The notes beneath the pieces are model-generated. The model saw nothing but the letters and a program-made list of their open reading frames with translations. It was not told where the DNA came from and made no database searches. The position numbers were made by a program, and so were the translations under genes. A stretch of 52,456 nt of DNA, the filler included, from Jimgerdemannia flammicorona (Eukaryota), in the NCBI GenBank assembly GCA_003990765.1. It is 2 parts of 2 records of this genome, joined end to end, with 100 filler letters (N's around TTAATTAATTAA, not from the genome) between each part and the next. Parts side by side here need not be neighbours in the genome. Positions count along the whole stretch, not along the records: positions 26,286 to 52,456 come from RBNJ01000753.1; 1 more part is not named here. One strand, given 5' to 3'. This document shows, piece after piece, positions 26,186 to 52,456 of the stretch (position 1 is the stretch's first letter; the number at the start of each line of letters is the position of its first letter).

Positions 26186-26285
26186 NNNNNNNNNNNNNNN
26201 NNNNNNNNNNNNNNNNNNNNNNNNNNNNNTTAATTAATTAANNNNNNNNNNNNNNNNNNNNNNNNNNNNNNNNNNNNNNNNNNNN
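26186..26285. other. Artificial contig-joining spacer (N44-TTAATTAATTAA-N44)
   Basis: Exactly 100 nt, symmetric, with a palindromic 12-mer that gives stop codons in all six frames. Confidence 0.97.
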
Positions 26286-29200: not shown

Positions 29201-30873
29201 TCAAACGTTGATTCGACGTTGCAAGAATTCTTACTGCAAGATCAGGTACCGATACTACCTTCCGAAGCCAGTTCACCAAGGCCACAGCGTCGCCATCGCC
29301 CATGGCTTGTGCATGCTTCAATATATCAGCTTGATCGAGAATAAGCAAACTCGTCGGACGGGACTCGAATTTCTTGATAAGGACCCGCTCCAACATGTTC
29401 AAGTCACCAGTCAGGGCTTCCTGGAATATGACCTGACCCAGGTGCTGCAAATAGTCAATAACCGATATTGGGTGCAAAGGATCGAAACGCCAAACAAAAA
29501 TTCCACCAGGGAAGAGATGCGCCGTCCGTCTGACCACCTTCTCAGCCAACGCCGTCTTTCCCTGGCCGACGATGCCTTCAATGGTACATATTTGATGAGA
29601 CTGCTTGCTATGATGCACCATACGTCGTAGAATAGAGTGCAATTCGACAAGCTCTTTTTTGCGTCCACAAAAAGTGGAAGTTGTGGGGATTGCATCGAAG
29701 TTGTGGAGGGGCATATGGAGTTCCACCGTTGGCGAACCTTCCTCACATTTGAATGCGCCGTAATATTCACAAGACATAGACGAATAAAGAACCATGGCAC
29801 CGGGGAGATAGTATTTTTGTCGGATGTCTTTGTGATCATGCAGAAATTCACGCGCCCTCCACATCGCCATCTCTACTGTGAAACCACCGGCGAGGAACTT
29901 GTAGAAATTGGATTCGAACTTGCGGGCAAGGTCGTCTGGTATGGTACAATGTGAGCCAATGCTGTATGGAACACCATACTGGACCAAGACACGTGCGATG
30001 TCGCGGGTTTTGCAAGCCGACAGGAACGCAATTCGCAAGTTTTTGGATACACAAGTGAGGAGAGATGTGTCAACGAATTCGTGTTCGCCAGTCTCCGTTT
30101 CGAATATTAGGCATCTTGCACCCCGCTTCGATGACCCGCAATGTCCCATGAAATGAAGCACTGTGGCTGTTTTGGACTCGTTCAAGAGCAATGCGTTCAT
30201 ACGATCGACAGTAGGCGGATACACGCGCTCCAATAATACTTTTTTGGTGTTGGTGTGAAATTCGTTAACAAAGTTCTGGAACTGCTCACTCAAATGCAAA
30301 GCTGGAAGGTTTGTATTGGGATCATCAGGCAGGATGATGGGGTCTGGTACAACGGCCACAATGCGGAGCGGAAGTTTGTCCATCTGAGGCGATTCCTCCT
30401 TGCTCGTGCGCATGAACTTGCGTGTAAATGGGCGCTCGTGGACAAGGTATTTGTCACCAGAAGACACATATGCATATTCCCAGGGGATGTCGTCAAGGTC
30501 TTTGTTTTCGTTGAGCTCGAGCTGGACTGCGCACGGCGGTGGTTTCCGAATTAGCCGCTCGGCGGGAGAATCGTTTTGGAAGAGGGCGTTGAACAATCTG
30601 AGTCGTTATTTTGATAGGAATTCAAAAGTATAAGTTAGGCTGGCATTTGCCATATTTTTCGAAGTGGTTGTATTTTTCAACTTACTTTATGCCATATCTC
30701 AAGAGCAGGTTGCGCTTAGGTTCCGTGTCAAAGACCTCTATGGCAACATCTTTGCCCTCAACATCTTCTAAGAAGAAGGAATGGCTGTATTCGAGTTTTG
30801 AATTGTTTTGAAAAGAAACTAGGACCCAGACTTCACCAGTGTTATCGGTATCTTTCAACAATGATACTCGCAT
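26286..30873 (-). CDS. Multi-exon NLR-like STAND protein: CHAT (caspase-like) protease - NB-ARC - wHTH - degenerate Ras-like GTPase - NB-ARC - Sel1 repeats; 3'-incomplete, at least ~1,400 aa
   Basis: Predicted exons 30873-30686, 30597-28538, 28461-27907, (27806-27780) and 27692-<26286. Introns of 88, 76, 100 and 87 nt have donors GTAAGT, GTGAGT, GTAGGT and GTGAAG and CAG/TAG acceptors, and all preserve frame. CHAT: IPWEY, HFMGHCG, FLSACKT. NB-ARC1: FCGRKKEL, GIVGQGKT, LLILDQAD, ILATS, GHPLSL. NB-ARC2: FIGRTSEL, GFGGIGKT, LLYLDNME, ILATSR, GHPLSL. At least 2.5 Sel1 repeats (AQFALSACYQGGCGVEQDFGKAFELLLKAAEAGH). The join across 27906-27693 is less certain than the first two introns. Confidence 0.8.
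28193..28320 (-). repeat. Coding 15-nt tandem repeat (~8 copies, DSID(G/D))
   Basis: Read directly; in frame within the GTPase-like domain. Confidence 0.9.
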
Positions 30874-31829: not shown

Positions 31830-32759
<930 letters not shown>

Positions 32760-32760
<1 letters not shown>

Positions 32761-33420
32761 AACAAATTTTATTATTCTATATATAATAATATTTTAATAT
32801 ATTATTATTTTTAATTTTATTATAATATTTTATAAAAAATAAGATCAATAAAATTAATTTATTTTATAACTTATAAGTTTAATAATATAACTTTTTTAAC
32901 TACTATAAGTATAAAAGTCAATTTTATTTAATTATTTAAAATTTTAATAATATTTAAATATATTATAAAATATAATTCAAATTAAAGAATATATATTTTA
33001 TCTCTAAAGTATAAATTTAACTTTTAATATATATAATATAATATTATATTATAGTTGAAAGTTATTAATTAAAATTATTTATAATTTTAAATTTTATAAT
33101 TTTAAGATAAATAACAAATAACTATTATTAAAATTAAATTAAAATGTTAAAATAATATAAAAAAAAATTATTACTATAATATAGATACTATATATTAAGA
33201 ATAAGTTATATAATTTCTATAGAATATAAAATTAACTTAAGAATAACTTAGATAAGTTTAAATAGATTATTAAAGATTAATTTAACATTAATATAAATAG
33301 GGTTAAAATAATATAATTAATATATTTAAATTTAAATAATTAACTAAAACAATAGTTTAAAATATATTTATTAAAATATTACTCTTTTTCTCTATAATAA
33401 TATAATAGATATATATATAC
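32760..33420. repeat. Extremely AT-rich low-complexity tract (end-stage decayed repeat)
   Basis: Very few G/C; it grades out of the mutated LINE remnant on its left. Confidence 0.7.
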
Positions 33421-34999
33421 TAATAAAAGTATGATAGATTTCATGATCTTAAATACTTAATCTTCTTTAACTTTTTGGAGTCAGTATCTTTCTCTAAGAT
33501 AATTTATATTATATAAATATCTTTCAATACTTTTGATATAATTTTTAGAGAAAAAGTATTAGTAATATAATAATACATAAGAGTTCTGATAGATATGCTT
33601 GATCTGATAGACCTAGGGCCTTTGGTTGACAATATATTAGAAAGAACTATAATATAGAAATGGGTTTTTTTAGTAATAAGAGTAGATAGATTAGATGTAG
33701 TAGAAGTTAGCTACTAAGTATAAATAGTAGAGAGCTGAGACTATTGAGCTTTACTAATAAGATATAAGTAGAGCATTGGTCTGAGAGTACTCAGAATAGT
33801 AAGTCAGAGAAGAGAGAAAAGATAAGTACTAAGAGGACTAAAGAATTAATATCTAATAAAATAGATATAGAGACTAGTAGAGCTATTAGTATGAGTGAGA
33901 ATATGACTAATAATAGTATAAAAGAAATCTGAGAAGTAATGGTGAGTATAAAACTAAGAAGACAGAATATACTAGGAAAAGAAATCTAATAAATAGTATA
34001 ATGAGGCTAGTAGTAACTTTATTACTTAAGAAATTAATCTCTGAATTTATTATTAATTTATACTTCTGAGAGCTAACTATAATAGTCAAGATAGTTTGGA
34101 AACTAAATATAAGCCAGATAGCTAGAGTAGTCTCAGTAAATTTCTATAAGAGAGAATTAAGATAAAGGTTAATTAGAGAAGTAGTAATATTAATAGCTCA
34201 TATCTGAGATGAGATCTGAGAATATGTAGTTTAGTTCTTGTAAAATAAATATCTATAGTAATGGCTATTGAGATAAAGTAGAAAGTAATAGAGACTATAT
34301 TAAAGTATAATAATAGTAAATATTAGATTTTAGGTCTGAGAGAAGATCTCATCAAGATAGAAAATATATACAGATATTCAGTTTTAGCTTATTGAGAGAG
34401 TAACTATTGAGAAGACTAGAGACTAGTCTTTAGTTTTGATATAAGATACTTTAGTAATAAGATAATAAGAATAAAAAGAAGTAAGAAGAAGAAGAAGGAT
34501 CTATTAAAGATCCTAAGTATAGCAGTAATAGTATATATATGTATATGTATAATATTAATATACAAAGAGATAGTAAATAGTAAATAGATTTATATAAATA
34601 AAATAATATAAGAGAAGGTCTAGAAGAAGAATAAACAGAGAGATCTATTGATAGATATGAAGAAAATATCTACAACTAGAGCTAAAGAGGGCTTAAAAGA
34701 AGTAAAGATAAATATTTGAGCTAGAAATAGAGTAGAGGAATAGAGAGAGTATGTAGTGGAATGCAGAAAATTATGGAGCCAGCAGCTCTATAACAATTGT
34801 ATACTTGTGATCTAAAAAGAGAAGAAGAAGAGATAAGAGCTGAGCTCAGGACAAAAAGATTATAGAGAATTTAAAGATAGGAGATATGTACAAAGTCCTG
34901 TTTAGAGTATCAGATATAGCAAAAGAAGAATAGATAGTCAAAATAGAAGAGAATGAGCTCATCACCTTTCTCAGCTACTATTCAGATTATATACACTTT

Positions 35000-37900
35000 C
35001 ACAACATACTTCCAATATATTAATTAGAGAAAGATACTAAGGTTAGAGTAACTAATAAGCAAGCTGATATATGTACCAGATTAGGTAGACCTGGAGCCTT
35101 CAACTGGCAAACTATTGGATGAGAGTATAGATAAGAGATAGGGTCCTTTAGTGGTCTGAGTGGGTAAGGCAGTTTGGGCAACAGTAGCAGTACTAGAGAA
35201 GAGACAGGAGAGTAGAGAGAGAGGAACTTTGCTGATATACTAAAGGCTGAGAGATGGCCTGTGGGATCTCATAGCAGGTATGCAGAGAGGAAGGGAAAAG
35301 CAGAGAGAAGGAGAAGCAAAAGATATAGCATCTCAGCCAGGAGGAGAAAGGGCTGGTGATCTAGTAGTTAAGAGTAGAGAGGGGATTGCTGATGGTAGTA
35401 TAACTGAGAATCTGGCAAAAATCCAGATGTAGTTGCTGATGAGAGAGCTGGATTAATAGAACCAAAAAGGAAGAAAGATCTGCTAATGGTGTAATAGGGC
35501 TGGTGGTGGAACCATTACTCAAGAAGTTGATCTTGGAGTTTATGGCAACCTTGTGCTTCTGGAGCTTAGTAGTAATGGTGAGAATGGTTTTGGAGATTAT
35601 CTCAAAGTAGGTAGCTGGAGCTACCTCAGTAAAGTTTCTGAAGAGATTGTAGGAGGTTGAAGTATGGTTTGAGAAGACAGACCCATTAGAGGAAGTATTG
35701 AAATCTGGAGTAGCTGTTAGAGAGGTAGTAGTCCCTTATAGTATAGTTTTTGAGAAAGGACCCCAGAGTAGTTCAGTTACTAGTAAAGGTGATATCTATA
35801 GTAATAAAGATTGAGACAAAGAGGAGGGTAGAGGAGGTGATGGCAGAGTAGAGCAATATAGTTGATATCAGTTTCCAGATATAAAAGGGGACTACTTTCA
35901 GGATAAGAGATATAGATGTCAAGATTAGACTGACTGAGAGAGAGGCCACAGAGAAGACAAGTTACTAGCTTTTGCAAATGATGTAGTGGGCTTTTATCTG
36001 TAAGGTGTCAAGGATGAAAGAGAGTGAAGAGGAGGAGGAGGACTTGTTGGAGGCTTTGGAGCAGATAAGTAGAGTAGTAGAGCAGAGGGCAAAGGCCTGA
36101 AAGTTGTATGTAGAGTTGATACATTTAGAGAATATGGATGGAAAGCTTATTCACACTAATAAGAGGTAGTAAGAGAGAGCTCAAGAATATAAGAAGTAGA
36201 GAAAGTTACTTACAAGTATAGAAGGAGGTATAAAGAAGAATACTAGAGGTACTGAGAAGTCTAGAGATATAAAGATGAGTATCTGGCCTAGTAAGAGAGA
36301 AGAGGATACAGAGGAGGATCTGGATGGGACTGGGAAGGTGCCATATAAGGACTCATTTGCAGATAGTATGTTTGAAGTCTGGGAACCAGTCTTAGAAGAT
36401 ACCCCCTCTCTGGTCCTGCTGTGAGGGACCAGGTGGCAGAGGATGAGTTAATGTAGAGTGCTCAGCAAGTATACTTTGGAGTTCCTAATATAGCAAAAGG
36501 AAGACAGATAGTAGTGGTTAGCAAGGATGAGCTGATGGATATCCCAGAGGAGAGATGGGATGAGACTACAAGTATAGGAGCAAATACCATAATACTGGAT
36601 TTAAGAAGACCAGAGACACTAAGAGGAAAGGATATGGGAAATCTACTATGAATGAGCCAGATGGTGAATAACTTTATAGCTGAAGAGTTGGGAGAAGTAG
36701 ACCTGAGAGTGATGAGTGAGAAGTATTGTGTACAGATCCTATGTAGAGATGGGGTAGTGGAGGCACTGAAGGCAGAGGTACTTGCAATTTTCCTAGAAGA
36801 GGAGGGATATAAGATTGATAAGGAGAGAGAGGCTGAGCTGGCAGTTGTTGCTGGTGAGCAGGCTGCCTACTATTGGGCAGAATATCATGGTTTGCAACTC
36901 TGGTAAGAGGTATACCTGAAGTATTATAAGAACTTTGAGAAAAAAGAGGATGGGGAGATAGCTGAGCTTCTGGTTGGACTGGAGACAAAGTTGGCTGAAG
37001 AGGAGAAATTGGTTGCTGAATATAACTTAAACTTGATACAGAAGGAGATGAATGTAGATTTATATAGGATGAGCTTGATAATTAATATTATTTCTTATAA
37101 ACAGTATAACTAATATTTTCTCTCTGAATGTGAATGAGTTATGTGGAGATCTGAGCAGTATAAGAACATTTTTACTTGGCTTAAGAGATTGGATGCTGAT
37201 CTCTTTCTACTATAGGATATATAGTATGAAGATAAAGAGGATTAGATAGAGTTGACTAGACAATATAGAGGACTATAACTTGAATTAGCAAAGTGGCAAT
37301 TCTGATACAGAGGGGTAAAGGATATTTAGGTGGAATCAGGAGCTGTGGTAACCATTTGATATGGAGAGAATGACATTGACCTGGGTAGGAGCCAGTGAGA
37401 GATAGCTCTTACTACTACTTTATAGCTAGGGGTGAGTAGATTTTGTAGATTGGGGATCTTTTGGAGGAGAGTATTCTCTTGTAGGAGAGAGTAGATGTTC
37501 TGGGAAGTAACTTTAATATAGTGCAGAATCTTCAGTGAGATAGAACAGATGGAGAGAGGGGTACAGATGGGAGAAGTAGTGATCTAGATACATGAGAGAA
37601 GATAGAGAACCTTAGCTCTTTAGGGGATATAGGCAGAATATGGAGGAGAGAAAAAGGATCTATATATACTGGATGAATAGAAGAGGTATGAGGATTGACT
37701 GGATTCTGACAGCTGAATGCTGGAGTGTGGATATTTAGAAGACTCTAGAGGTAAAGTGGTGCCTGTGGTCAGATTACTGGGGACTATTAGTGTAGGAGTA
37801 GTTTGGGGAGAGTGAAGATTGACCCAGACATTAGTACCTTAATACCTCTCTGCTGACTGAGAAGATATTGTTGGATCTATGAGTAGAGGATATCCAAGTG

Positions 37901-39054
37901 AAGATTACTAGCTGAATACATAAGGGATCACTAGTGAGTGTCTGTTGAATATAGTTAAAAGAGACTATAAGGGTTTACTGAGAGGAGCTGGTAGGGATAC
38001 TAGGAGACAGAGAAGAAAAAGAGTAAGATACATATGGTTCAAATTAGTTATTAGATTATAGATAGAATAGGTAGATTTGATAACTTCTGAAGAGGTGGAT
38101 GATTGGAGGTTAGAGTGAGCAAAATTAGAGATGGTGGAGCTACAACAGATACTAAAAGATGAGGAAAAGATACATATGAAAGAAATGGCAGCCAAGCTGA
38201 GGTAGCAGAGGATTGAGGAGGGGGAGAGGCCAACTAGGTACTTATCAAGGCTCCTCTAGGCCAAAAGGGTGTGACATCAATGGCAAGAGATCCTTGATGT
38301 AAAGGGAGAAATAGTGTATGGAATATAACAGATCTTAGAGATATTGAAGAGGAGATGGATGGAGGAGTTTGTAGAGTAAGAAAGAAGAGAGTGCTGATGA
38401 AGAGGTGATTGGAGACATATTGGACAATTTGGAACTGCTGCAAGGAGAGAGTCTTAGAGACTTGATCCTACCAGTCCAAGAGGAGGAGATCTAGAGAGTT
38501 CTTGTGACAACTAAGCTTGAGACAGCACTAGGAGAGAATGGGTTATCTTGAGATATTTGAAAGAAGATAGTGAAGGTCTCTAGAGTATTAGGAGAGATGG
38601 CAGCCCTCTGTGACCTTATTCTTCTGATGGTGAGTAGGTATGAGAGCAGAACTTAGGGCTGGTGGTTTTGTTGTCAAAGATAAGGAGAAGAGGAAGAACT
38701 AGAAGAACTGGAGACCAATCATACTTCTGGATATAGATAGAAAGATGGTGATTAAGATTATTTTCATAAGACTACAGAAGATTACCTAACAGGTGCTAGA
38801 TAAGGAGCAGTAGAGCTTTGTGAGAGACAGGCTTATTAGATATAGGACAGACTGGATTTATAGTATTGTTGGAGAGGTATAGAATTGTGGATTGGATGGA
38901 AGACTGGTCTTTTTGGACCAGGAGAAGACCTATGATCATGTTTAGCAGATATGGCTGGGTAAGGTGCTGGATTGAATTAATATTCTCTCATAATTTCAAG
39001 CTTCTATATTGAATCTGTTGTAGGACAGTAGGGTGGTACTGTTGTGTAATAGTC
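35000..39054 (+). mobile_element. Decayed L1/Tx1-like LINE (ORF1 region, APE, N-half of RT), cut off mid-RT
   Basis: APE remnants DADLFLL* (~37192) and VLGSNFNIV (~37497). RT remnants GEMAALCDLIL, NWRPIILLDIDRK and FLDQEKTYD are homologous to 17058-17669. The sequence stops before the QGDPLSP motif, at the first TTAGGG tract. The left boundary is approximate. Confidence 0.8.
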
Positions 39055-40435
39055 GCTAGGGTTAGGGTTAGGCTTCAAGTAAGGATTTATTCATTGTAGT
39101 GAAGAAAAGGTACATCAGAGCAATAAATAGCAAAGACTCCTGAGATAAGAAAAGCAAAACAAGGCCAGCAAAGTAAGCAACTAGCTAAGAAGTACAAACA
39201 AAGGCCAGAGAGGTGACCTCCCTATAGACAGGCTGGATAAAACCATTTTGTCAAGGCCATAAAGACAAAAAATGCAGAAAGCAAAGAAGAGAAATGAAAT
39301 AGAAATACACAATCACTCGGTGCCAACTACAAGGACCATATTGTCAACCAAATACCAAATGACTAACATGAGATGAATAACTCAATGCATTCTCAGCAAC
39401 AAGGGAACCAACTGAGACGAATGAGGGGAGAGGAAGGAATAAAGAAAATGTATGATCACTCGATCACTCAAGCATCTTCATAATCTCAGTCAGGTAAAAC
39501 CCAACTGCAAGGTGGTTACTGGAATTGCACACAGCATCAATAGCATGGTAGGCTGTCTCGTGAAGAGCATGAAGAGGGTAGACACAAAGTTCTTTCTGAT
39601 ATTCATCACTGGTAAATCAATCGAGTTGTTCATCTCAATTAGAAGTACCTTGGAATGTAGAATAGGAACCATCAAGAAGACTGCACCTGAGAAGATGGCC
39701 ATAATGAAACTTATCTCCACAGGGGCAGGGGCGGAGTTGACTAAAATAGCCATAATGCCAGACGAGAGCAGAGCACACAAGCCAGGGGGAGAAAGGAGAG
39801 GACACAATCGGCTCTCCATAACTGCAAGCGGTCTTTGGGGGTGATATACCAAACAAGAGCCTGAGAGAAAGAGGCCCATTCCTGCTGTAACTGATCATGA
39901 AGGAAGGACTGAAGGAAGAAGCAGAGCAAGCAAGTCTTGCAGACCTAGGGATGAAGGTCCCAGTACCAGTCAAGGAGGTCAAGCCAAGAGGTCCAATGCC
40001 TGAACTTGTCAATAATAGAACCCAGGGGATGTGTGACAAAGCACTCGGTAAGGGGGCTAATGGGATTGTTGCCAGACTTGCTATACTAATCTAGATGGGT
40101 TTGGAATATACAGCAGGGTCCAAAATATGATGAAGGAATGAAGGGAGGCTGAGAATCAAACTGCTAAGTAAGGGACAGTCGGAGAATCTGACTGCCCAAG
40201 TGATAGCATCATTAAAGACCTGCTTGGGATACTTCAACATCTGAAGCCCCATAGTAGTAGCCAGACAGGAGGCTTGTAAAAGAGGAAGGTCATACTCCAG
40301 CTAAGGTCTAATGAATGTCTATATAATAGCCAACTTGATTATCGGCAACCAGAGGGGACCACAGGCATGGCAGAACCCAAGAGTCCATTCCACCTTTGCC
40401 ACATTCTGTAATGTGAGGCTGACAAAGTCAAACCC
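39055..40435 (-). mobile_element. Telomere-repeat-tailed non-LTR element, unit 1 (5'-truncated, ~1.4 kb)
   Basis: Begins (+ strand) ctagggttagggttagg|cttcaagtaag. Co-linear with units 2-5 and ends at ...aagtcaaaccc. Confidence 0.9.
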
Positions 40436-40474
40436 AGGGTTAGGCATAGGGTTAGGGGTAGGGTTAGGGGTAGG
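40436..40474 (+). repeat. Longest interstitial telomere-like tract (TTAGGG and variants); others at 39056-39072, 42860-42870, 47946-47965, 51915-51928
   Basis: Read directly; every tract ends ...TAGG immediately before CTTCAAGTAAG. Confidence 0.9.
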
Positions 40475-42859
40475 CTTCAAGTAAGAATTTTTTCATTGTA
40501 GAGAAGACAAGGTACATTGAAGCAACAAAAGACAAAGACTCCTAAGATGAAAAAAGCAAAACAAGGCCAGCGAAGTAAATAACTAGCTAAGAAGAATAAA
40601 ACAAAGGCCAGAGAGGTGACCACCCTATGGACAGGCTAGATAAAATCATTTTATAATAGCCGTAAAGATAATAAATACAGAAAATAAAGAAAGGGAAGGC
40701 TAAGATATAATACACATTCACTCAGTGCCAGCTATATGAACTGGGTCAACAATCAAATACCAAATGACTGATATGAGATAAATAACTCAATATGCTCTCA
40801 ACAATGAGGGAACCAACCAAGGCAAATGAGAGGAAAGAAAGAAGTAAAGAAAATGTGCGACCGCTTGATCACCTAAGCATCTTCGTAATGTCGATCAGGC
40901 AGAACCCAACTGCAAGGTGGCCACCAGAATTACATATGGTATTGATAGTGTGATAGACCATCTCGTGAAGAGTATAAAGAGGGTAAGCATGAAGTTCTTC
41001 CTGCTATTCATCATTGGTAAACCAATCAAGCTATTCATCTCGATCAGAAGTACCTTGGAAAGTAGAATATGAACCATCGAGAAGACCACACCTAGGGAGA
41101 TGGCCATAATGAAACTGATCTCCACAGGGGCAGGGGCGGAGTTGGCCAAAATAGCCATAATGCCAGGCAAGGGCAGAACACACCAGCCAGGAGAGGAAGG
41201 AGAGGACACAGTCAGTGCCCCATGACCACAAGCGGCCTTTGGGGGTGATATACTGAACAAGAGCCTGGGAGGAGGAGGCCTATTCCTGCAGCAGTTGATC
41301 CCAAAGGAAGGACTAGAGGAAGGAGTGGAGTGAGCGAGTCTTGTAGACCTGAGGACAAAGGTCTCAGTACCAGTCAAGGAAGTCAAGCCAGGAGGTCCAA
41401 CATCAGAACTTGTCAATGATAGAACCTGGGGGATATGTGACAAAGTGCTCGTTAAGTGGGCTGATGGAGTTGTTGCCAGACTTGCTACACTAATCGAGGT
41501 GGGCTTGGAACATGCATCAGAGGTCGAACATATGACAGAGGAAGGAAGAGAGGTCGAGAATCGAACTGCTAAGCAAGGGATGGCCGGAAAATCCAACTGC
41601 CCAAGCAACAGCATCATCAAAGACTTGCTCAGGGCACTTCAACATCTGAAGCCCCATGGTAGTAGTCAGACAGGAGGCTTATAGAAGAGAAAGGCCATAC
41701 TCCAGCTGAGGCCTGATGAATGTTGGTACGATGGCCAACTTGACAGTTAGTGATTAGAGAGGACTACTGGTGCAGCAGAACCCAAGAGTTCATTCTGCCT
41801 TTGCTGTATTCCACAATGTGAGACTGATAAAGTCAAACCCTTTGTTGATATATGGCATGCCCAGGTACATATAGGAGGGGGGTCATGGGCAGGGTTCACA
41901 CCCAATCAGCACAGTACAGTTAGCAGGGCCAATATAATCACACTTCTTGAGGTTGAGCTCCATACCATTCATCCAAAGCTAGTCTTCGCAAAAGTCAACC
42001 ATCCTCTACCCTTGTGCGGTAGTGTGGGGGTGAGGGCGATATCATCAGCAAAGAAGAGCCTGAGGGGGAAGTTGTACTCCTTGAATTGTTCATCAAAGGA
42101 GGCAGCAAGGGGGTCGATAAAGACATCAAATAGCCAAGGAGAGAGAAGGGAGCACTGGAACAGACCATGCTCAGTGGAGATCGAAGGGGTGATGAGGTCA
42201 ATAACAACCACCTGATAGGAACAGTGATTGAACAGGCTTCAGATAATGCTAAGGAGGGCCACATTGGTACCTCACATCCGAAGTTGTAAAAGAATGAGAT
42301 TGAGGGAGACTCAGTCATATGCCTGCCAGAGGTCAAGAAAGACACAGTTGCCCCATCTCTTGGCCCACGTATCATGCAATAGCAAGACATGAGAGAGGGA
42401 TGAGAAGTGGGTTCAGAAGCCAACTTGGCAGTATGACATTTCTGTCAGGCTACTTTGGCTCTTGATATATCCTTCCAAACACCACTTGAAGAGTCTACGA
42501 AACATTTCAGTCATAGTAATAGGGTGAAATCCATCTATCATATGTGATTCCTCCTTTTTAGGAACTAGGATGATGATGGCAGAGTTCTAGCAGCAGGGAG
42601 TGAGCCCCCAAACCATGTATATTTGGAAGAAGAATGATAGGGCCTTCGACAGACTACAGGGGGCATTCTTCTCACCTACCATCACCTTAAGGATCCGGAC
42701 ATGCAAGGAGTTGGCTCCACATACCTTTGAGAGGGGGTAGCTGCCAATAGCCCTCTAAACCACAGGCTGGTTGAACTAATATGATAGTCCAAGAGCACCT
42801 ATGCCGAAAGAGAAGACATCCTCAGAGTCATCAAGATGGAGGGAGGCATTCGGTTGGCC
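40436..42859 (-). mobile_element. Telomere-repeat-tailed non-LTR element, unit 2 (5'-truncated, ~2.4 kb, includes RT core)
   Basis: Tract agggttaggcatagggttaggggtagggttaggggtagg|cttcaagtaag. RT motifs SLLSPWLFDVFIDPL and LFFADDIAL. Confidence 0.92.
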
Positions 42860-43264
42860 TTAGAGTTAGGCTTCAAGTAAGGATTTATTCATTATAAAGA
42901 AGATAAGGTACATCAAAGCAATAAAAGACAAGGACTCCTAAGATGAGAAAAGCAAAACAAGGCCAGTGAAGTAAACAACTAGCTAAGAGGAACAAACAAA
43001 GACCAGAGAGGTGACCACCCTATGGACAGGCTGGATAAAAACCATTTTGTCATGGCCATAAGGGTAATAAATGTGGAAAGCAAAGAAAAGGAAGGCTAAG
43101 ATATATTACACATTCACCTGGTGTCAATTACATGAACTGTATCAACAACCAAATACCAAATGACTGACATGAGATGAATAATTGAATGCACTCTCAACAA
43201 TGAGGAAACCAACCAAGGCAAACAAGGGGAAAGAAAGAAGTAAAGAAAATGTGCGATTGCTCGA

Positions 43265-46200
43265 TCACCTAAGCATCTTCATAATCTTGATCAGACAGAA
43301 CCCTAGCATGAGATAGCCACCAGAGTTACACATGGAGTTGATAGTGTGATAGGCTGTCTCGTGAAGAGCGTGAAGAGGGTAGACATGAAGTTCTTCCTGC
43401 CATTTGTCATTGGTAAACCAATTGAACTGTTCATCTCGATTGGATGAACCTCAGAAAGCAGAATACAAACCATCAAGAAGACCACACCTGAGGAGATGGC
43501 TGCAATGAAACTTATCTCTACAGGGGCAGGGGCGGGGTTGGCTAAAATAGCCATATCGCTAGGTGAGGGCAGAGTGCATAAGCCTGGGGGGAAGGAGAGG
43601 ACATGGTCAGTACCCTACAACTGCAAGTGGTCTTTGGGGGTGATATACCAAACAAGAGGCAGGGAGGATGAGGCACATTCCTGCAGCAGCTGATCCTGAA
43701 AGAAGGACTGGAGGAAGGAGCAGAGTGAGTGAGTCTTGCAGACCTAGGGATGGAGGTCCCAGTACTAGTTGAGGAAGTCAAGCCAGGAGGTCCAACACCA
43801 GAACTTATCAATGATAGAACCAGTGAGACATGTGATAAAGCACTTGCTAAGAGGGCCAATGAGGTTGTTGCCAGACTTACTACACCAATCTAGGTGGCTT
43901 GGAACATGTAGCAGAGGTCGGATGTACAATGGAGAAAGGAGGGGAGGCTAAGAATTGAACTGCCAAGCAAGGAACAGCCGGAAAATCTGACTGCCCAAGT
44001 GACAGCATTATCAAAGACCTGCTCGGGATGCTTCAATACCTGAAGCCCTGTGGTAGTAGCTAGACAGGAAGCTTGTAGAAGAGAGAGGCCATACTTCAGC
44101 TGAGGCCTGATGAATGTTCGAATGATGGCCAGCTTGACCATTGGTGACCAGAGAGAACCATGGGCATGGCAGAACCCAAGAGTTCATTCTGCCTTTGCCG
44201 CATTTTGCAATGTAAGGCCAACAAAGTCAAACCCTTTGTTGGTGTATGGTATGCCCAGGTATATATATGAGGGGGGTCACAGGCAGAGTTTGCCCCCAAT
44301 CAGTAGGGTACAGTCAACAGGGCCAACATAACTGCATTTCTTGGGATTGAGCTCTATGCCATTTACCTGAAGCCAGTCCTCGCAAAAGTCAACCATCCTC
44401 TGCCCTTCCACGGCAGTGCGGGGGGTGAGGGTGATGTCATTAGCAAAGAAGAGCCTGAGGGGGAAGTCATACTCCTTGAATTATTCATCAAAGGAGGTGG
44501 CGAGGGGGTCGATAAAGACAAGGGGAGAGGAGAGAGCCCTGGAAGAGGCCATGCTCAGTGGGGACCGAAGGGTTGACGAGGCCATTAACAACTACCTGAT
44601 AAGAACAGTGATTGAACAGGCTACAGATAATGCTAAGGAGGGCTGCATCGGCACCTCGTGCCTCAAGTCACGAAAGAATGAGCTTGGGGAGACTCCGTCA
44701 TATGCCTGTCAGAGGTCAAGAAAGACATGGTGGCCCCATCCTTTAGCTCACATCTCATGCGATAACAAGACGTGAGAGAGAGATGAGAAGCAGGTTCAGA
44801 AGCCACCTTGGTAGCATGACATTTCTGTCAGACCACTTTGGCTCTTGATATAACCTTCCAAACACCGCTCGAAGAGTCTACGAAATATTTCAGTTATAGC
44901 AATAGGGCGAAACCCATCAATCATACATGATTCCTTCTTCTTAGGGATCGAGGTGATGATGGCAGAGTTCCAGCAGCAGGGAGCGAACCCCCAAACCATG
45001 CACATTTGGGAAAAGTATAATAGGGCTTTCGATAGACTATAGGGGGCATTTTTCTTACCTGCCATCACCCAAAGGATCCAGACATGGAAGGAGTCGGCTC
45101 CACATGCCTTTGAGAGGGGGTAGCTGTGGATAGCCCTCCAAACTGCAGGTTCATCAAACCAAGACTGAGTCTAAGAGCACCCATACCAAGAGGGAAGAAA
45201 TCCTCAGAGTCATCAAGATGAAGGGAGGCATCCAGCTGGCCAAAGATAGTGGTGAAATGAGCAACCACATTGTCGAACACTAGGACATTGGGGGAGCGAG
45301 ATTGGAGGAGAGTGAGGGGGGTAGAGTGGTATGCTTGCTTGAAACCATGAATGGCATCGGAGACTGAAGATGCACTACAAAGAAGGTCCTGCCAAGGGAG
45401 CAGCACTGCCCTGATCTCTCTTACATTATACAAGCCAAGAATGTCCTCACAAAATGATTGTAGACCAGAGGTCAAAAGGACATCAAGAGAATTCACAAAC
45501 TGCTGATGATCTTCCACAGAGTGAAAGCTAGCAATATGGTCTCTGTTAGAGTAGATGGACCTAACAACAGTATTGTAAATGATATCTGCTGATTCCCGGA
45601 GGTGGGCTTGAATGACCAGATTGGTCAGGTATCTCACAGAGTAATGATGGATGCCAGCCAAGGTGGCAACTGGTGAGGGGGAGAAGGAAAAGGAGATAGT
45701 AAGGAGGGAGGGGTGGTCGGTAGCAATAGGAGGGGTGGAGCAAGTGAGAGATGCATAGAGGGATATGGTGGCAAATGCATGATCAACGTATATGGATCCA
45801 GCCACTATAGTCAGATGGTTCAATGACTATGTCATCAGGGAGGTGTCGACGACATCCATCTGGTTGCAGGGACCAGAGTTGATGTCACTAAGGTGAGCAC
45901 CGAAGCAGGTATTGATGTCACCAATCAAAAGGGCCTTATCTGAGAAGGGTCCTGATACCAGATCTCGGAAGCCACCAATGGGAAGAGAGGGGAGGGCATA
46001 AACCCCAACCAAAGCCAGGCCCTCGAACATGAGCCGAATATGGAAGGGGTCAGTGGAGGACTCAGAAATAAGTAGGGTGAAATGGTTTGACACGAGGACC
46101 ACAAGGCCACCATTCTGATGACCCACAATCCTGTTCGACACCAGGGGAGAAAACATGTGAATGAGCAGAGAGGGATGCAGCAGGATGTACCACATTTCAC

Positions 46201-46297
46201 ATATGAAAAGAATGTTGAGGGCAGGACCAATCAGCTGACTGAGCATATCAAACTTGTCCTGGGGTAGTCTGTGTACATTGAGGAACCCAACTCTCAT
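43265..46297 (-). pseudogene. ORF2 of unit 3: APE endonuclease + reverse transcriptase
   Basis: APE motifs MRVGFLNV, LFICEMW, LVGVYA, LLIGDIN, YVDHAF and TDHP. RT motifs ITSIPKK, GFRPIAITEIFRRLFE, QGGF and RTFIRPQLKYG. Broken by stops and frameshifts; the 3' boundary is approximate. Confidence 0.85.
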
Positions 46298-46309
46298 TGT
46301 AGGCTGGGC

Positions 46310-47536
46310 GCATTAGTGCCAACAGTGTGGGAAGCACCTGAGGAGGAAGCTTCAGCTTCCAAATCTATTGCCATATCTCCTATCATGGCTACAGTACCAC
46401 TTGCCTTCAAAGCAGGGCCAGCCGACAGGGGGGCAGAGGGGGGAGAGTGAGGCCAAGTTCCGCGGCCCAAGCTCTGTAGAAGGTCTGCACCTCAGGCCTC
46501 TTTACAGTGGCTTCGCCAGCCAACTGCCAGACCCGAGCATGGAAGGACTGGAGTACCCATGTCTTCATGGCCTCTATGGCATTCTTGTTGTTAGGAAGCA
46601 CAGGGCCCCAGGCCGACAGCACCGAGAACCCAAGCACCTTCATCCTCTTTTAGAACACTGTGATATAATCAGGATAGAATAGGAATTCAATGGTTAACAC
46701 CGAGACATACGACATATTGAGAACTTTTGACAACATTATATAGACATCATACAGGTTCTTCCAGATCTGCCCGATCTTGGATGGGCAAATCCGTCAACAT
46801 AAATGTGCTACAGCCTAGTGCCATTCTCAGTTGGTGACAAATGAGAGGTCAGCTTGTAGTTATGTATGAAAGATCGGTGGCAGCAGCTGCCCTTTCAGTC
46901 TCAGGGTAGACCTGGGTCCTATCTTTGATAGAGACCTTCTTGGCGATGGCGGCATATGATTTGAGGGGGGTAGGGGTCGAAGCAGGGGATGAAGACAGAC
47001 TGGCAGAGCTGGGTCTTACAGGTGTAACCCTAACCCACTGGCCTGGGGGCCTTGGCCTTGGCCTTTTTAGGGGGTGCAGCTTTAGCGGCTAGAGGCACAG
47101 CCGTGGGAGTTGCCTCCTTCAGTGGTGCATCAGACTGTGATGGGGTGGCTTTAGCAGCCTGCTTGTCTGCTCTCTTCTGAGCCTTCGACCATGTGTTTGT
47201 GACAGGTCCAGTAGGAGGGGGGGCCAAGGACTTGTGGGGGGCAGATGTGGAAGGGGTGGCAGGAGTATTTCTCGAAGGAGTACCAGATGATGAGGGGGTG
47301 GTGGGTGCAGACCATATAGCAATCTGCGCTAATAGCTGGGCATTGATCTTGACCAGTTCAGCTACTTGAGTCAGCAGATCTGAGATCTGCTTCCTCATCG
47401 TGGCCATCTCTATGACCAGATCAGGGTTGGGTGAGGGGCCCACATGACCAGCCATCAGGGCATAGAGAGTAGTGGGGGCACTGGGCATCATGGTCTGAAT
47501 CTGAAGAGATCGCAATCTCTTCGTCATCTTCTGCAT
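46310..47536 (-). pseudogene. ORF1 of unit 3 (coiled coil, P/T/A-rich linker, SYAAIAKK motif)
   Basis: ORF 47030-47536 with heptad-like EMATMRKQISDLLTQVAELVKINAQLLAQI. It continues after a stop. The C-terminal part is homologous to ORF 51344-51934 of unit 4. Confidence 0.7.
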
Positions 47537-47945
47537 CGTGTAGGGAAGATAAATATGCTGATATCAGTCATACATCCCCGCACGACCTACACATCTCTGT
47601 AAGGCTACCCTCGCCAAAGCCAAGAGAGAGAAGACCAATACTGTGACCCTCAGTACAGCAGAGAGAGGCGGCAAAGCATACAAAGAGACAGGTGGCATTG
47701 CTGTCATCACCGATGATGGAGGAGGTGGCCAACATTACTGAATTAAGCAGAGGTGTATTTGTTTGTATTTATGAAATTGTGAAATATGGGTCACATGACC
47801 TTTGTTTGTGCAACAAAAAAATAATAGTAAATGGTGGTATTTATACCCAATGAGAGGCTTAGCTAATCAAAGTGACTGCTTTCATAATTTGGAATAGCTT
47901 TGGGCCATAAAGCCGAGTCTAACCAAATGGTGAAATCATGTGAGT

Positions 47946-50900
47946 GGGATAGGGTTAGGCTTAGGCTTCAAGTAAGAATTTATTTATTGTAGAGAAGACA
48001 AGGTACATTAGAGCAATAAAAGGCAAAGACTCCTAAGATGAGAGAAGTAAAGCAAGGCCAGTAAAGTAAATAACTAGCTAAGAAGAACAAAACAGAGGCC
48101 AGAGAGGTGACCACCCAATGGACGGGCTGGATAAAACTATTTTGTCATGGCTGTAAAGATAATAAATGCGAAAAGTAAAGAAAAGGAAGGCTAAAATATA
48201 ATACACGTTCGCCTGGCACCAACTACATGATCATTGACAACTAAATACCAAATGACTGATATGAGATGAATAACTCAACGTACTCCCAACAATGAGAGAA
48301 CCAACCAAGGCGGATGAGGGAAAAGAAGAAAGTAAAGAAAATATATAATTGCTTGATCACCTAAGTATCTTCATAATCTCGGTCAGGCAGAACCCAACTA
48401 TGAGATGGCCACCAGAATTATAAATAGTATCAATAGTATGATAGGCCATCTCGTAAAGATCATGAAGAGGGTAGGCATGAAGTTCTTCCAGCCATTCATC
48501 ATTGGTAAACCAATCAAGCTATTTACCTCGATCAGAAGTACCTTGGAAAGCTGAATAAGAACCAACAAGAAGACTGCACCTAGGGAGATGGCTATAATGA
48601 AACTTATCTCCACAGGGGCAGGGGTGGGGTTGGCCAAAATAGCCATAATGCCAGGTGAGCACAGTGCGCACCAGCTAGAGGGGGATGGAGAGAATATGGT
48701 CAGTACCCCACAACTGCAAGTGGTCTTTGGGGGTGATATACCAAATGAGAGCCTGAGAGGAGGAGGCCCATTCCTGCAGCAGGTGATCCCGAAGGAAGGA
48801 CTGGAGGAAGAAGCAGAGTGAGCAAGTCTTGTGGACCAGAGGATGAAGATCCCAGTACTAGTCGAGGAAGTGAAGGTCCAACGCTGGAACTTGTCAATGA
48901 TAGAACCTGGGGAATGTGTGACAAAGCACTTGCTAAGGGGGCCGATGGGGTTGTTGCCTGACTTGCTACACCAATCCAGATGGGCTTGAAACATGTAGCA
49001 GAGGTCAGATATATGATGAAGGAAAGAGGGGAGGCCAAGAATCGAACTACCAAGCAAGGGACGGCCAGAAAACCCAACTGCCCAAGCAAAAGTGTCATCA
49101 AAGACCTGTTTAGGATACTTTAACATCTGAAGCCCCATAGTAGTAGCCGGATAGAAGGCTCGTAGAAGGGGGAGGCCATACTCCAGCTGAGGCCTGATGA
49201 ATGTTCATATGATGGCCAGCTTGACCATTGGCAACCAGAGAGGACCATGGGCATGACAGAACCCCAAAGTTCATTCCATCTTTACTATATTCTGTAATGC
49301 TAGACTGATAAAGTCAAACCCTTTATTAGTATTTAGTACACCCAGGTACACATAGGGGGGGGGTCATGGGCAGGGTTCACCCCCAATCAGTACAGTACAG
49401 TCAGCAGGGCCAATATAACCACACTTCTTAGAGTTGAGCTCTATACCATTTGCCCAAAGCCAGTCTTCACCGAAGTCGACCATCCTCTGTCCTTCTACAG
49501 CAGTGTGGGGGATGAGGGAGATATCATCAGTAAAGAAAAGCCTGAGGGGGAAGTCATACTCCTTGAACTGTTCATCAAAGGAGGCAGCAAGGGGGTCGAT
49601 AAAGACATCAAACAACCAAGGGGAGAGGAGGGAGCCCTGGAGGCTACACTTAGTGGGGACTGAAGGGGTGATGAGGCCATTAACAACCATCTAATAGGAA
49701 CAGTGGTTGAACAGGCTTTAGATAATGCTGAGGAGGGCCGCATTGGCACCTTGTACCTCAAGTCGGAAAAGAATGAGTTTGAGAGGGACTCAGTCATACA
49801 TCTGCTGGAGGTCAAGAAAGACATGGTGGCCCCATCTCTTAGCCCACATATCATGTGATAGCAAGACATGAGAGAGGGACAAGAAGTGGGTTCGGAGCTA
49901 CCTTGGCAGCACAACATTTCTGTTTGACTACTTCAGCTCTTAACGTAACTTTCCAAACACTGCTCGAAGAGTCTACGAAATATTTCAGTCAGAGCAATGG
50001 AGTGAAATCCATCAATTATGCGCAATTCCTCCTTCTTAGGGACCAGGGTGATAATGGCTAAGTTCCAGTGGTGGGGAGTAAGCCCCCAGACCATACATAT
50101 CTAGAAGAAGAATGATAGAGCCTTCGACAGGCTACAGGGGGCTTCCTTCTCACCTGCCATCACCTGAAGGATCCAGACATGTAAGGAGTTGGCTCTACAT
50201 GCCTTCTAGAGGAGGTAGCCGCTGATAGCCCTCCAAACCACAGGCTGGTCAAACCAAGACTGCAGTCCAAGAGCACCCACACCAAGAGAGAAGATATCCT
50301 CAGAGTCATTGAGATGGAGAGAGACATCTGGTTGGCCAAAGATAGTGGTGAAGTGAACAACCACATCATCGAACACCAGGATATTGGAGGAGTGAGATTT
50401 GAGGGGTGCAAGGAGAGTGGAGCGGTACACTCGCTTGAATTCACAAATGGTATCAGAGACCGAAGATGTACTACGAAGAAGGTCCTGCTGAGGGAGTGGC
50501 ACTACCCTGATCTCTCTTGTATCATACGAGCCAAGAATGTCCTCACAAACTGACTATAGACCAGAGGTCAAAAAGGCATCAAGAGAATCCACAAACTGTT
50601 GGCGATCTTCCATAGAGCAAAAGTCAGCAATATGGTCTCTGATAGAATAGATGGACCTGACAACAGTATCGTAAATAATATCTGCTGATTCCCAGAGGTG
50701 AGCTTGAATGACCAGATCAGTCAGATATCTCACAGAGTAATGACAGATACTAGCCAAGACAGTGACTGGCGAGGGGGAGAAGAGAAAGGAGACAGTGAGG
50801 AGGGAGGGGTGGTTGGAAGTGACAGGAGGGGTGGAGCAGATGAGGGACGCATGGAGGGACATAGTGGCAAATGCATGATCAACACATGTAGATCCAGCCA

Positions 50901-51914
50901 CTGAGGTCAGGTGGTTCAACAACCATATCATCAGGGAGGTGTCAATGATATCCATCTGGTCGCGGGAACTAGAGCCGACATCACTAAGGCAGGCACTGAA
51001 GTGGGTATTGGTGTCACCAATCAAAAGGGCCTTACCTGGGAAGGGTCCAGACACCAGATCATAGAAACCACCAATAGGAAGAGAGGAGAGGGCATAAACT
51101 GCAACCAAAGCCAGGTCCTGGAATATGAGCCAGATATAGAAGGGGTCAGTGGAGGACCCGGAAATAAGGTGGGCAAAACAGTTTGACATGAGGACTACAA
51201 GGCCACCATTCTGATGACCTATGATCCTGTATGATACCAGGGGGGGGGACATGTGAATGAGCAGAGAGGGATGTAGTGGGATGTGCCATGTTTTAAATAT
51301 AAAACGAGCGTCAAGGGCAGGACCAATTAACTGACTGAGCACATCAAACTTGTCCTAGGGTAGTCTGTGTGCATTGAGGAACCCAACTCTCATTGTGGGC
51401 CAGGCGCATTAGTGTCAACAGTGTGAAAAGTATCTGAGGAGGAAGCTTCAGCTTCCAAATCCATACAGTACCACCTGCCTTCGAAGCTGGGCTGGCTGAC
51501 GTGGGGGCAGAGGAGGGGCAGGTAAGGCCGAGTTCTGTGGCCCAAGCTCTGTAGAAGGTCTGTACCTCAGGCCTCTTTGCAGTGGCTTCACCAGCCAACT
51601 GCCGGACCCAAGCATGGAATGACTTGAGTACCCAGGGGAGCATGGGGTTCCAGGCCGAAAGCACTAAGAACCCGAGCATCTTCATCTTCATTTGGAATGC
51701 TGTCATATAATTAGGGTGGAGCAGGAATTTGATGGTCAATGCCAAAACATACGACATATTGAGAATCTTTGACAATATCACATAGATGTCATACAAGTTC
51801 TTCCAGATCTGCCTGATCTTAAGATGGACAAATCTGTTGATGTAAATGTGCTGCAGCCTAGCACCCTTCTCAGTCAGCAACAAATGAGAGTTCAGCTTGT
51901 GGGTCATGTATGAA
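47946..51914 (-). mobile_element. Telomere-repeat-tailed non-LTR element, unit 4 (5'-truncated within ORF1, ~4.0 kb)
   Basis: Tract gggatagggttaggcttagg|cttcaagtaag. RT motifs LQGSLLSPWLF and FFTDDISL; APE in 50554-51342. Ends at ...gtatgaaag, where unit 3 continues atcggtgg. Confidence 0.92.
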
Positions 51915-52311
51915 AGGTTAGGGCTAGGCTTCAAGTAAGAATTTATTTGTTATAGAGAAGACAAGGTACATCAGAGTAACAAAAGACAAAGACTCCTAAG
52001 ATGAGAAAAGCAAAACAAGGCCAGCGAAGTAAACAACTAGCTAAGAAGTACAAAACAAAGGCCAGAGAGGTGACCACTCTATGGACGGGCTGGATAAAAC
52101 CATTTTGTCCCAGCCGTAAAGATAATAAATGCAAAAGCAAGAAGAGAAAGGCTAAGATATAATACACATTCGCCTGGTGCCAACTACATGAACCGTATCA
52201 ACAACAAATCACCAAACGACTGACATGAGATGAATAACTCGATGCACTCTCAACAACGGAGGGAACCAACTGAGGTAAATGAGGGGAAAGAAGGGAGTAA
52301 AGATAATGTGG
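51915..52311 (-). mobile_element. Telomere-repeat-tailed non-LTR element, unit 5 (3' UTR only, then T-rich contig end)
   Basis: Tract aggttagggctagg|cttcaagtaag; co-linear with the 3' UTRs of the other units. Confidence 0.9.
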
Positions 52312-52456
52312 GTTTTTTTTTTTTTTTTGTTTTTTTTTTTTTTTTTTTTTTTTTTTGGTTTTTTGTTTTTTTTTTTTTTTCGGTTTTTTTGTTTTTTTGT
52401 AATTTTTTAGTTCGTTTTTTAATGTTTTTTGGGGTTTTCTTTTTTTTTTTTTTTTT
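52312..52456. repeat. T-rich low-complexity end of contig
   Basis: Long interrupted T-runs; likely a poly(A) tail on the minus strand or low-quality sequence. Confidence 0.8.

Follow-up and report, generated by a model that had tools for sequence, protein, structure and literature searches.

The window analysed here, a 52,456-nt stretch of Jimgerdemannia flammicorona DNA (assembly GCA_003990765.1), carries at its end an array of one retrotransposon without long terminal repeats (non-LTR), or long interspersed nuclear element (LINE). Five same-orientation copies lie head-to-tail on the minus strand between 39074 and 52310, with short tracts of telomere-like TTAGGG repeats at their joints. A preliminary description of the locus had listed five such copies with one common 3' terminus, each preceded by two to six TTAGGG-like units and lacking poly(A), and counting of a terminal 15-mer, BLASTN, and direct reading of the junctions bore this out. 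Units 1 to 5 are numbered in their order along the plus strand, and 5' end points are given in the coordinates of unit 3 (5.08 kb).

The 15-mer TAGGCTTCAAGTAAG of the shared 3' terminus occurred exactly five times in the window, always on the plus strand (39069, 40471, 42867, 47962, and 51925), against a shuffle expectation of 0.15. With the longest copy as the BLASTN query, five collinear copies of 80–87% identity were recovered from the window and no others, all within the single array: 39069-40435 (1.37 kb), 40471-42859 (2.39 kb), 42867-47960 (5.09 kb), 47962-51916 (3.95 kb), and 51925-52310 (0.39 kb).

Tract T0 (CTAGGGTTAGGGTTAGGC, 39056..39073, plus strand), telomere-like and lying before unit 1, forms the proximal edge of the array. 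Unit 1 (39074..40435, minus strand) is 5'-truncated at position 3715 and retains the C-terminus of the second open reading frame (ORF2) with a CCHC motif and the 3' untranslated region (3'UTR). After tract T1 (40436..40475, plus strand), which comprises approximately 6.5 units in a 12-nt periodic variant (AGGGTTAGGGGT), unit 2 (40476..42859, minus strand) is 5'-truncated at 2708 and holds the reverse transcriptase (RT), the C-terminal region, and the 3'UTR, with the ORF2 stop near 40895. Tract T2 (TTAGAGTTAGGC, 42860..42871, plus strand) separates it from unit 3 (42872..47948, minus strand), the longest copy, which is 5.08 kb long, approximately full length, and riddled with stops and frameshifts. 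On its minus strand, an ORF1 remnant spans ~47536-46330 and an ORF2 remnant ~46297-43303, the latter with an apurinic/apyrimidinic endonuclease (APE) region at ~46297-45600, the RT at ~45158-43990, and a CCHC motif near 43528. Tract T3 (ATAGGGTTAGGCTTAGGC, 47949..47966, plus strand), with its variant unit TTAGGC present twice, leads to unit 4 (47967..51916, minus strand), 5'-truncated at 1077, in which the C-terminal domain of ORF1 (51871-51494) and ORF2 (51396 to ~48400) are all broken. Beyond tract T4 (the GGTTAGGGCTAGGC region, 51917..51929, plus strand) lies unit 5 (51930..52310, minus strand), the final 0.39 kb of the element from position 4696, which is truncated or interrupted. The remaining 144 nt (52313..52456) are a T-rich tract, A-rich on the sense strand of the element, that reaches the window end and is not a telomere tract.

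Twelve-mers with at most two mismatches to TTAGGGTTAGGG were found 11 times on the plus strand, all at the five joints, and the sole other match in the 52-kb window was on the minus strand at 900; at most one mismatch was seen in five matches, compared with 0.30 expected. The tracts were 2–6.5 units long, with canonical TTAGGG units beyond the first unit. In every copy, the element adjoins a unit with a transversion, TTAGGC (GCCTAA on the sense strand), and two TTAGGC units occupy 47955-47966. The 12-nt period of T1 was repeated in 3.2 copies with 92% matches, TTAGGG alternating with GTAGGG-type units; as these changes are transversions, repeat-induced point mutation (RIP) does not explain them. 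At all five junctions, direct reading revealed neither poly(A) nor any A- or T-run between the element and the repeats, and the junction TTAGG/CTTCAAG was common to all copies. Because the genes of the element lie on the minus strand, C-strand repeats follow each element 3' end, and the G-rich strand runs straight into the element cDNA at five of five junctions, as first described.

The 5' end points differ from copy to copy, which indicates independent retrotranspositions and not the duplication of one unit. Within the window, BLASTN detected no resumption of a truncated copy beyond its neighbor, and the earlier reading of the copies as independent 5'-truncated insertions without nesting is upheld. 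The 5' joints fall in differing repeat phases (T^AA, TAA^, and C^CC), compatible alike with insertion at a nick and with addition to a free end. No terminal (TTAGGG)n is present within the window, and the array is an unproven candidate mark of a former or present chromosome end.

Coding capacity and decay of the copies

The element, approximately 5.1 kb in length, has two ORFs. ORF2 combines an N-terminal APE endonuclease with an RT and a CCHC motif, and ORF1 a coiled coil with a conserved C-terminal domain, without CCHC knuckles. The 3' end of the element is ...AATAAA-TCCTTACTTGAAG-CCTAA(CCC), without poly(A). In the sense-strand end of the window copies (AATAAATCCTTACTTGAAGCCTAA), the telomere tract begins 19 nt from the start of AATAAA, and the hexamer is kept in four of the five copies.

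Pfam searches with 22 ORF pieces from the window matched RVT_1 in two (direct match, E 1.3e-7) and returned neither Exo_endo_phos nor another endonuclease family in any. Only RVT_1 was matched because every frame is broken, and the APE assignment therefore depends on homology to intact relatives. The translated RT region of unit 3, with stops written as X, was used as the query in an exhaustive search of representative proteins (E ≤ 0.001). It retrieved 1789 proteins, the top ones being ~1000 aa long and 28–38% identical. When 10 close relatives were scanned, RVT_1 was found in all except a 212-aa fragment, and an N-terminal Exo_endo_phos or Exo_endo_phos_2 in five. Six ~1000-aa relatives were compared with units 3 and 4 by tblastn and aligned from residue 3–7 to ~770–865 with joint E values of 1e-24 to 1e-87, the alignments taking in the endonuclease part (46297-45218 in unit 3 and 51396-49954 in unit 4). 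In a 25-protein alignment, the APE catalytic positions were invariant or near-invariant, accompanied by a FADD box and a C-terminal CCHC, and the CCHC was seen in units 1–4 (e.g., CPCGDKFHYGHLLRC).

An intact relative from a metagenome contig (L002) encodes an ORF1 of 556 aa and an ORF2 of 1003 aa that overlap at ATGA, in a body of ~5.15 kb between telomere-like tracts; by this measure, unit 3 (5.08 kb) is near full length. The C-terminal domain of the L002 ORF1 matched unit 4 (E 2e-10) and unit 3 (E 5e-7). The initial classification as an APE-type two-ORF LINE is thus substantiated by the tblastn matches of proteins bearing Exo_endo_phos and RVT_1 and by this ORF1 match. Knuckles of the form CX2CX4HX4C were absent from the ORF1 of all 13 relatives inspected and from every frame of units 1–4. 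For the L002 ORF1, AlphaFold gave a model with a mean predicted local distance difference test (pLDDT) score of 65.8, in which residues 40-110, 197-231, and 379-500 were confidently predicted. A Foldseek search of this model against the PDB gave no match at E ≤ 0.001 and no match to L1 ORF1p. Its weak rows (0.03–0.07) include RRM and ACT-like ferredoxin folds, and an RRM-like fold for ORF1 is offered as a suggestion only.

The five copies are all inactivated, and the locus is a relic. Pairwise identities among the copies (80–87%) are star-like, which fits mutation of duplicated copies better than age, and transitions exceed transversions by ~6:1. Relative to the column majority, C>T rates were 0.50 at CpA, 0.61 at CpG, and 0.09 at CpT, with G>A mirrored at TpG and CpG; this spectrum is RIP-like. 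The RT region of unit 3 contains eight in-frame stops in 426 codons, and the reading frame shifts inside units 2, 3, and 4. The array shows RIP-like mutation disabling telomeric arrays of this kind. In other parts of the window, two AT-rich blocks (18001-20000, GC 0.26, and 32001-34000, GC 0.20) stand amid sequence of GC 0.44–0.51 and look like RIP-degraded repeats.

Relatives and their telomeric abutments

A family-profile scan of metagenome contigs yielded 80 loci, and 34 were looked at (L001-L030, L032-L034, and L042). A strict pattern, which required at least (CCCTAA)2 or else (CCTAA)3 directly past ORF2, was present in nine metagenome loci. A looser pattern, at least two tandem C-strand units after the 3'UTR, was present in 19 of the 34, including one degenerate case (L014), and all were in the C-strand orientation. 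Among these 19 telomere-abutting loci, neither poly(A) before the tract nor G-strand repeats after the 3'UTR were observed, and no telomere tract was located inside an ORF body. The distance from the start of AATAAA to the tract was 7–21 nt, and 16–21 nt in 17 of the 19. Head-to-tail arrangement recurs in L029 (bases 1-103 equal 2723-2825), in L016, which picks up at an internal position of the element directly beyond its own tract, and in L017 and L002, where the 3' end of another copy and a tract lie upstream. The repeat in L032 (3244-3258) is (CCTAA)3, and L005 carries GCCTAAATAACCCTAAA ~220–250 nt past its ORF2 match. CCCTAAA-like ends were seen in several relatives (L012, L016, and L026 were flagged for non-CCCTAA repeats), and such sequences hint that the family follows the telomere motif of its host.

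An RT tree was inferred using FastTree (93 sequences, 418 columns, SH-like support) and was rooted by choice on L1-like proteins bearing zf-RVT. Window units 2–4, the three tested, formed one group with support of 1.0, nested in a 48-tip clade spanned by the 19 telomere-abutting loci. With the root placed on those proteins, the family was not adjacent to the zf-RVT-bearing L1-like proteins. The named relatives are fungal (Calcarisporiella thermophila, Sporobolomyces ruberrimus, and Orpinomyces), and Artemia was a distant match among the 10 top proteins looked up by cluster. A protein-cluster search with a family protein led to clusters with both APE and RT.

The APE catalytic columns N10, E36, D130, N132, and H176 were invariant in 16 of 16 endonuclease domains, and D175 was conserved in at least 90%, which argues that the nuclease is under selection in the relatives. 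A profile built from these 16 endonuclease domains matched L1 endonuclease (EN) chains among solved structures with E values of 4e-10 to 3e-9. No TRAS1 EN or R1Bm EN chain was matched by the endonuclease profile at E ≤ 10 or by the whole-ORF2 profile at E ≤ 1. The best solved match of the whole-ORF2 profile was human L1 ORF2p (E 1e-54, profile positions 4-697). Among solved structures, the endonuclease and RT thus appear closest to L1 ORF2p, which fits an L1/Tx1 affinity as far as profile comparison can indicate.

A sister lineage (L043, L044, and L050) shows the opposite orientation: on the sense strand, (TTAGGG)n comes 10–33 nt after AATAAA (3' regions at L043 5795-5977, L044 3918-4030, and L050 8418-8586 and 2169-2186). 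In L043 and L050, the (TTAGGG)n extends to the contig end, and L050 has a further short G-strand tract 6.3 kb upstream. This orientation requires a C-strand 3'-OH provided by a nick, because free G-overhangs are unable to prime it. Having the same 3' design in the opposite orientation, the sister lineage points to nicking as the ancestral mode in the group.

Mode of insertion

We consider it probable that the locus is the relic array of a telomere-repeat-specific, APE-type LINE that worked like the insect elements TRAS and SART or like Tx1-1_ACar of the green anole. The array belongs to a family in which other members repeat its 3' design and its head-to-tail arrangement. For the RNA 3' end, the nick site, the dependence on the endonuclease, and the order of insertion, we infer the following course. 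The transcript would have its 3' end inside the downstream telomeric unit or adjacent to it, 19 nt past the start of AAUAAA, giving an RNA terminus ...GAAGCCUAA, i.e., a C-strand-like CCUAA. The conserved spacing of AATAAA suggests a placement of 3'-end formation that lets the RNA finish in telomeric sequence. The CCUAA would pair with a G-strand 3'-OH ending in ...TTAGG, and reverse transcription from there would create the TTAGG/CTTCAAG junction. The primer would most likely arise when the endonuclease encoded by the element nicks the G-rich strand within a short telomeric run, as in TRAS1. Incomplete reverse transcription would leave the differing 5' truncations, and later insertions distal to or between older copies would build up a head-to-tail array with few repeats per joint. 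The duplicated copies would afterwards have been inactivated through RIP-like C-to-T mutation.

Several observations weigh against this interpretation. In the preliminary description, units 1, 2, and 4 are truncated and directly followed by the next telomere tract; unit 5 deviates from this pattern and is bounded distally by the 144-nt T-rich tract without telomere repeats. A further retroelement, inserted into unit 5, may have left this tract as its A-rich tail, or the contig may simply end in a low-complexity stretch. T-rich tracts do occur in the assembly, given a nearly pure 120-nt T run at 31982-32101 in an AT-rich intergenic stretch. Among the metagenome loci, 15 of 34 showed no clear tract, on account of early contig stops, degenerate units, or A-rich ends. 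Four or five of them have one or two degenerate units only (L005, L007, L034, L018, and L003), and three (L004, L006, and L020), which cluster with the Orpinomyces protein, lie in very AT-rich DNA and have 3' regions that are A-rich or resemble poly(A). The metagenome relatives come from unnamed source organisms and from short-read assembly, which favors short tracts and can collapse tandem copies. Deep nodes of the RT tree received modest support (0.60 for the 48-tip clade and 0.71 for a 39-tip subclade, with 0.88–0.94 for the enclosing clades). Use of the endonuclease is reconstructed, and the orientation in the window, with the G-strand running into the cDNA, could also be primed by a free end. 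All tracts are short, and this would also fit attachment to an eroded end with brief re-capping by telomerase.

The alternative that the last two points would also fit was the one put forward in the preliminary description: the 3'-OH of a free G-overhang primes reverse transcription, telomerase re-caps the end, and the cycle repeats, so that a mixed telomerase/LINE telomere would help to lengthen the chromosome end. The polarity fits at five of five joints, the G-strand is directed to the window end where the array sits, the tracts are uniformly short (2–6.5 units), and the differing phases of the 5' joints are as expected of de novo repeat addition. In addition, a telomere-complementary unit probably terminates the element RNA, a trait also of the endonuclease-lacking Athena and Coprina elements (partly after the available text of PMC4522978). 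However, every copy is dead, which leaves no current function at the locus, and no terminal (TTAGGG)n lies within the window. The APE active site is invariant across the relatives, and the sister lineage has an orientation that free ends cannot prime. The short tracts are also sufficient as targets for telomere-specific endonucleases, because SART1 and TRAS1 require only two to three telomeric units according to the available text of PMC7265360. We therefore regard a chromosome-end extension system as unlikely at this locus, and the invariance of the APE site together with the sister orientation favors endonuclease-mediated, repeat-specific insertion over free-end priming.

It is very improbable that one insertion was multiplied by tandem duplication or unequal crossing-over, or that the array is an assembly artefact from collapsed or concatenated repeats. 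The copies are tandem and similarly diverged, with star-like identities of 80–87%, and the window has two N runs and a low-complexity T-rich end. However, the 5' end point and the length and sequence of the tract differ unit by unit, with no common 5' break point, the copies differ by 13–20% with copy-specific mutations, unlike a collapse artefact, and the same architecture is present in independent metagenome contigs. Equally remote is nested insertion of a non-specific LINE into its own older copies, with the telomere-like units as its 3' tail: TTAGGC always adjoins the element and is doubled at 47955-47966, such that at least one unit travels with it, and unit 5 is possibly interrupted rather than truncated, but no copy resumes past its neighbor, tract length ranges from 2 to 6.5 units, the units past the first being canonical TTAGGG, and in relatives whose 3'UTRs are unrelated, the register between AATAAA and the terminal CCCTAA-type repeats is the same.

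Known telomeric elements and the remainder of the window

Repeat-specific insertion of the kind favored here is best known from TRAS1 and SART1, elements of the R1 clade in Bombyx mori and other insects. According to the available text of PMC7265360, they share with the window family an APE-type two-ORF structure, a fixed orientation in telomeric repeats, and subtelomeric arrays. The window family, with its sense strand followed by C-strand repeats, is oriented like TRAS, and the sister lineage parallels SART. In contrast to TRAS and SART, the window element and 19 relatives have no poly(A) at the 3' junction; ORF1 of the window family has none of the three CCHC knuckles found in the insect elements, and its target is TTAGGG. 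Membership in the R1 clade was ruled out by the absence of poly(A), the absence of CCHC knuckles in ORF1, and an endonuclease profile that matches L1 EN and not TRAS1 or R1Bm.

Tx1-1_ACar is a telomere-specific LINE of the Tx1/L1 group in the green anole with (TTAGGG)n as its target (Kojima and Jurka 2013, cited in the available text of PMC10088271). It resembles the window element, in a comparison by description only, in being an APE-type LINE reported in (TTAGGG)n, and its host is a vertebrate. APE-type LINEs at TTAGGG telomeres were thus already known, and the starting premise that they were not was too strong. The available text of PMC4640811 assigns APE-type target-specific LINEs to the Tx1 and R1 clades only.

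The preliminary description had also separated the element from the telomeric LINEs known in fungi, and rightly so: MoTeR, FoTeR, Cnl1, and the Malassezia elements are of the restriction-enzyme-like endonuclease (REL)/CRE type in the available text of PMC12857005 and PMC10410736. These CRE-clade elements (MoTeR of Pyricularia, FoTeR of Fusarium, Cnl1 of Cryptococcus, and those of Malassezia) are like the window family in being confined to telomere repeats, in lying in head-to-tail arrays of 5'-truncated copies with a 3' end of three to seven TAACCC units without poly(A), and in undergoing RIP decay (PMC12857005 and PMC10410736, available text). They have one ORF, in which the REL motif, CCHC...RHD...E...RAD, stands on the C-terminal side of the RT (PMC12857005, available text). 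The MoTeR/FoTeR/Cnl1 type was rejected, as the window element encodes an ORF1 besides ORF2 and its endonuclease is an N-terminal APE; no scan was aimed at the REL motif.

A likeness to the telomeric elements of Drosophila had been proposed as well. HeT-A, TART, and TAHRE belong to the Jockey clade and form head-to-tail arrays with the 3' ends directed centromere-ward and with 5'-truncated copies. These array features are also described in the available text of PMC10088271. The likeness holds for the polarity and fails at the joints: those of the Drosophila elements, whose host lacks telomerase, have oligo(A) in place of telomerase repeats, whereas those of the window are of the TTAGGG type with no A-run. 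End extension of the HeT-A/TART type was set aside on finding telomerase-type repeats at every joint. The Penelope-like elements Athena and Coprina were likewise rejected, as the window element has a LINE-type ORF2 with APE, RVT_1, and CCHC instead of a Penelope-type RT accompanied by a GIY-YIG endonuclease or by none. Hebe of bdelloid rotifers, a jockey-clade element with poly(A) and target-site duplications, did not correspond to the window element either, nor did the 3.4-kb telomeric element of Zymoseptoria, which is treated by its authors as Penelope-like in the available text of PMC4522978.

The element is a new case of a known functional class, the telomere-repeat-specific APE LINEs. The full-text literature outside Repbase Reports and subscription journals yielded no account of telomere-specific LINEs of the APE type in fungi. 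The clade of the element may be undescribed. More tentatively, and with somewhat more doubt than confidence, we propose an old, widespread, and so far undescribed super-clade of telomere-repeat APE LINEs, with the window element as one member, whose lineages insert in both orientations, like TRAS and SART, but are unrelated to R1. They would share an address design in which the position of AAUAAA lets the RNA 3' end arise within the first telomeric unit, without copied poly(A). The named relatives are in Mucoromycota, Neocallimastigomycota, and Pucciniomycotina, and the fungus of the window is probably RIP-competent. If such a super-clade exists, the target-specific APE-type lineages would number three, with Tx1 and R1 as the other two, the CCTAA- and CCCTAAA-type abutments would imply co-evolution with the telomere motif of the host, and where telomeres are short, such elements could also lengthen chromosome ends.

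Telomere-specific LINEs are a classic case of the safe harbor, and in Drosophila, transposons have taken over an essential task of the host. In the window and in the metagenome relatives, an APE-type family displays the lifestyle of the REL-type telomeric elements of fungi. The conserved spacing between AATAAA and the telomere repeats hints at the way in which the RNA reaches its target, and intact members such as L002 would offer a direct route to the recognition of TTAGGG by a LINE endonuclease.

Outside the telomeric array, a fragment of a different LINE was identified at 16528-17690 (minus strand; RVT_1 E 8.6e-16), with 25–35% identity to the proteins compared. The proximal flank of the array (34001-39055) has a strong positive GC skew of 0.29–0.47. 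Between 33.5 and 39 kb, no Pfam family was found in 11 ORF pieces and two others, and tblastn gave no match to the proteins compared. Rfam had no match in the window. Further upstream, long NLR-like frames occupy 26230-30605 on the minus strand, one of 691 aa with CHAT and AAA domains and one of ~490 aa with NB-ARC and Sel1. Together with the RIP-like spectrum and the fungal relatives of the LINE family, these frames fit a fungal host. Two N runs of 44 N each (26186-26229 and 26242-26285) adjoin the second of these frames. The cluster matches of the CHAT ORF comprised mixed bacterial clusters and one ascomycete cluster, and the closest homologues of the NLR-like ORFs were 44–54% identical (27 matches).

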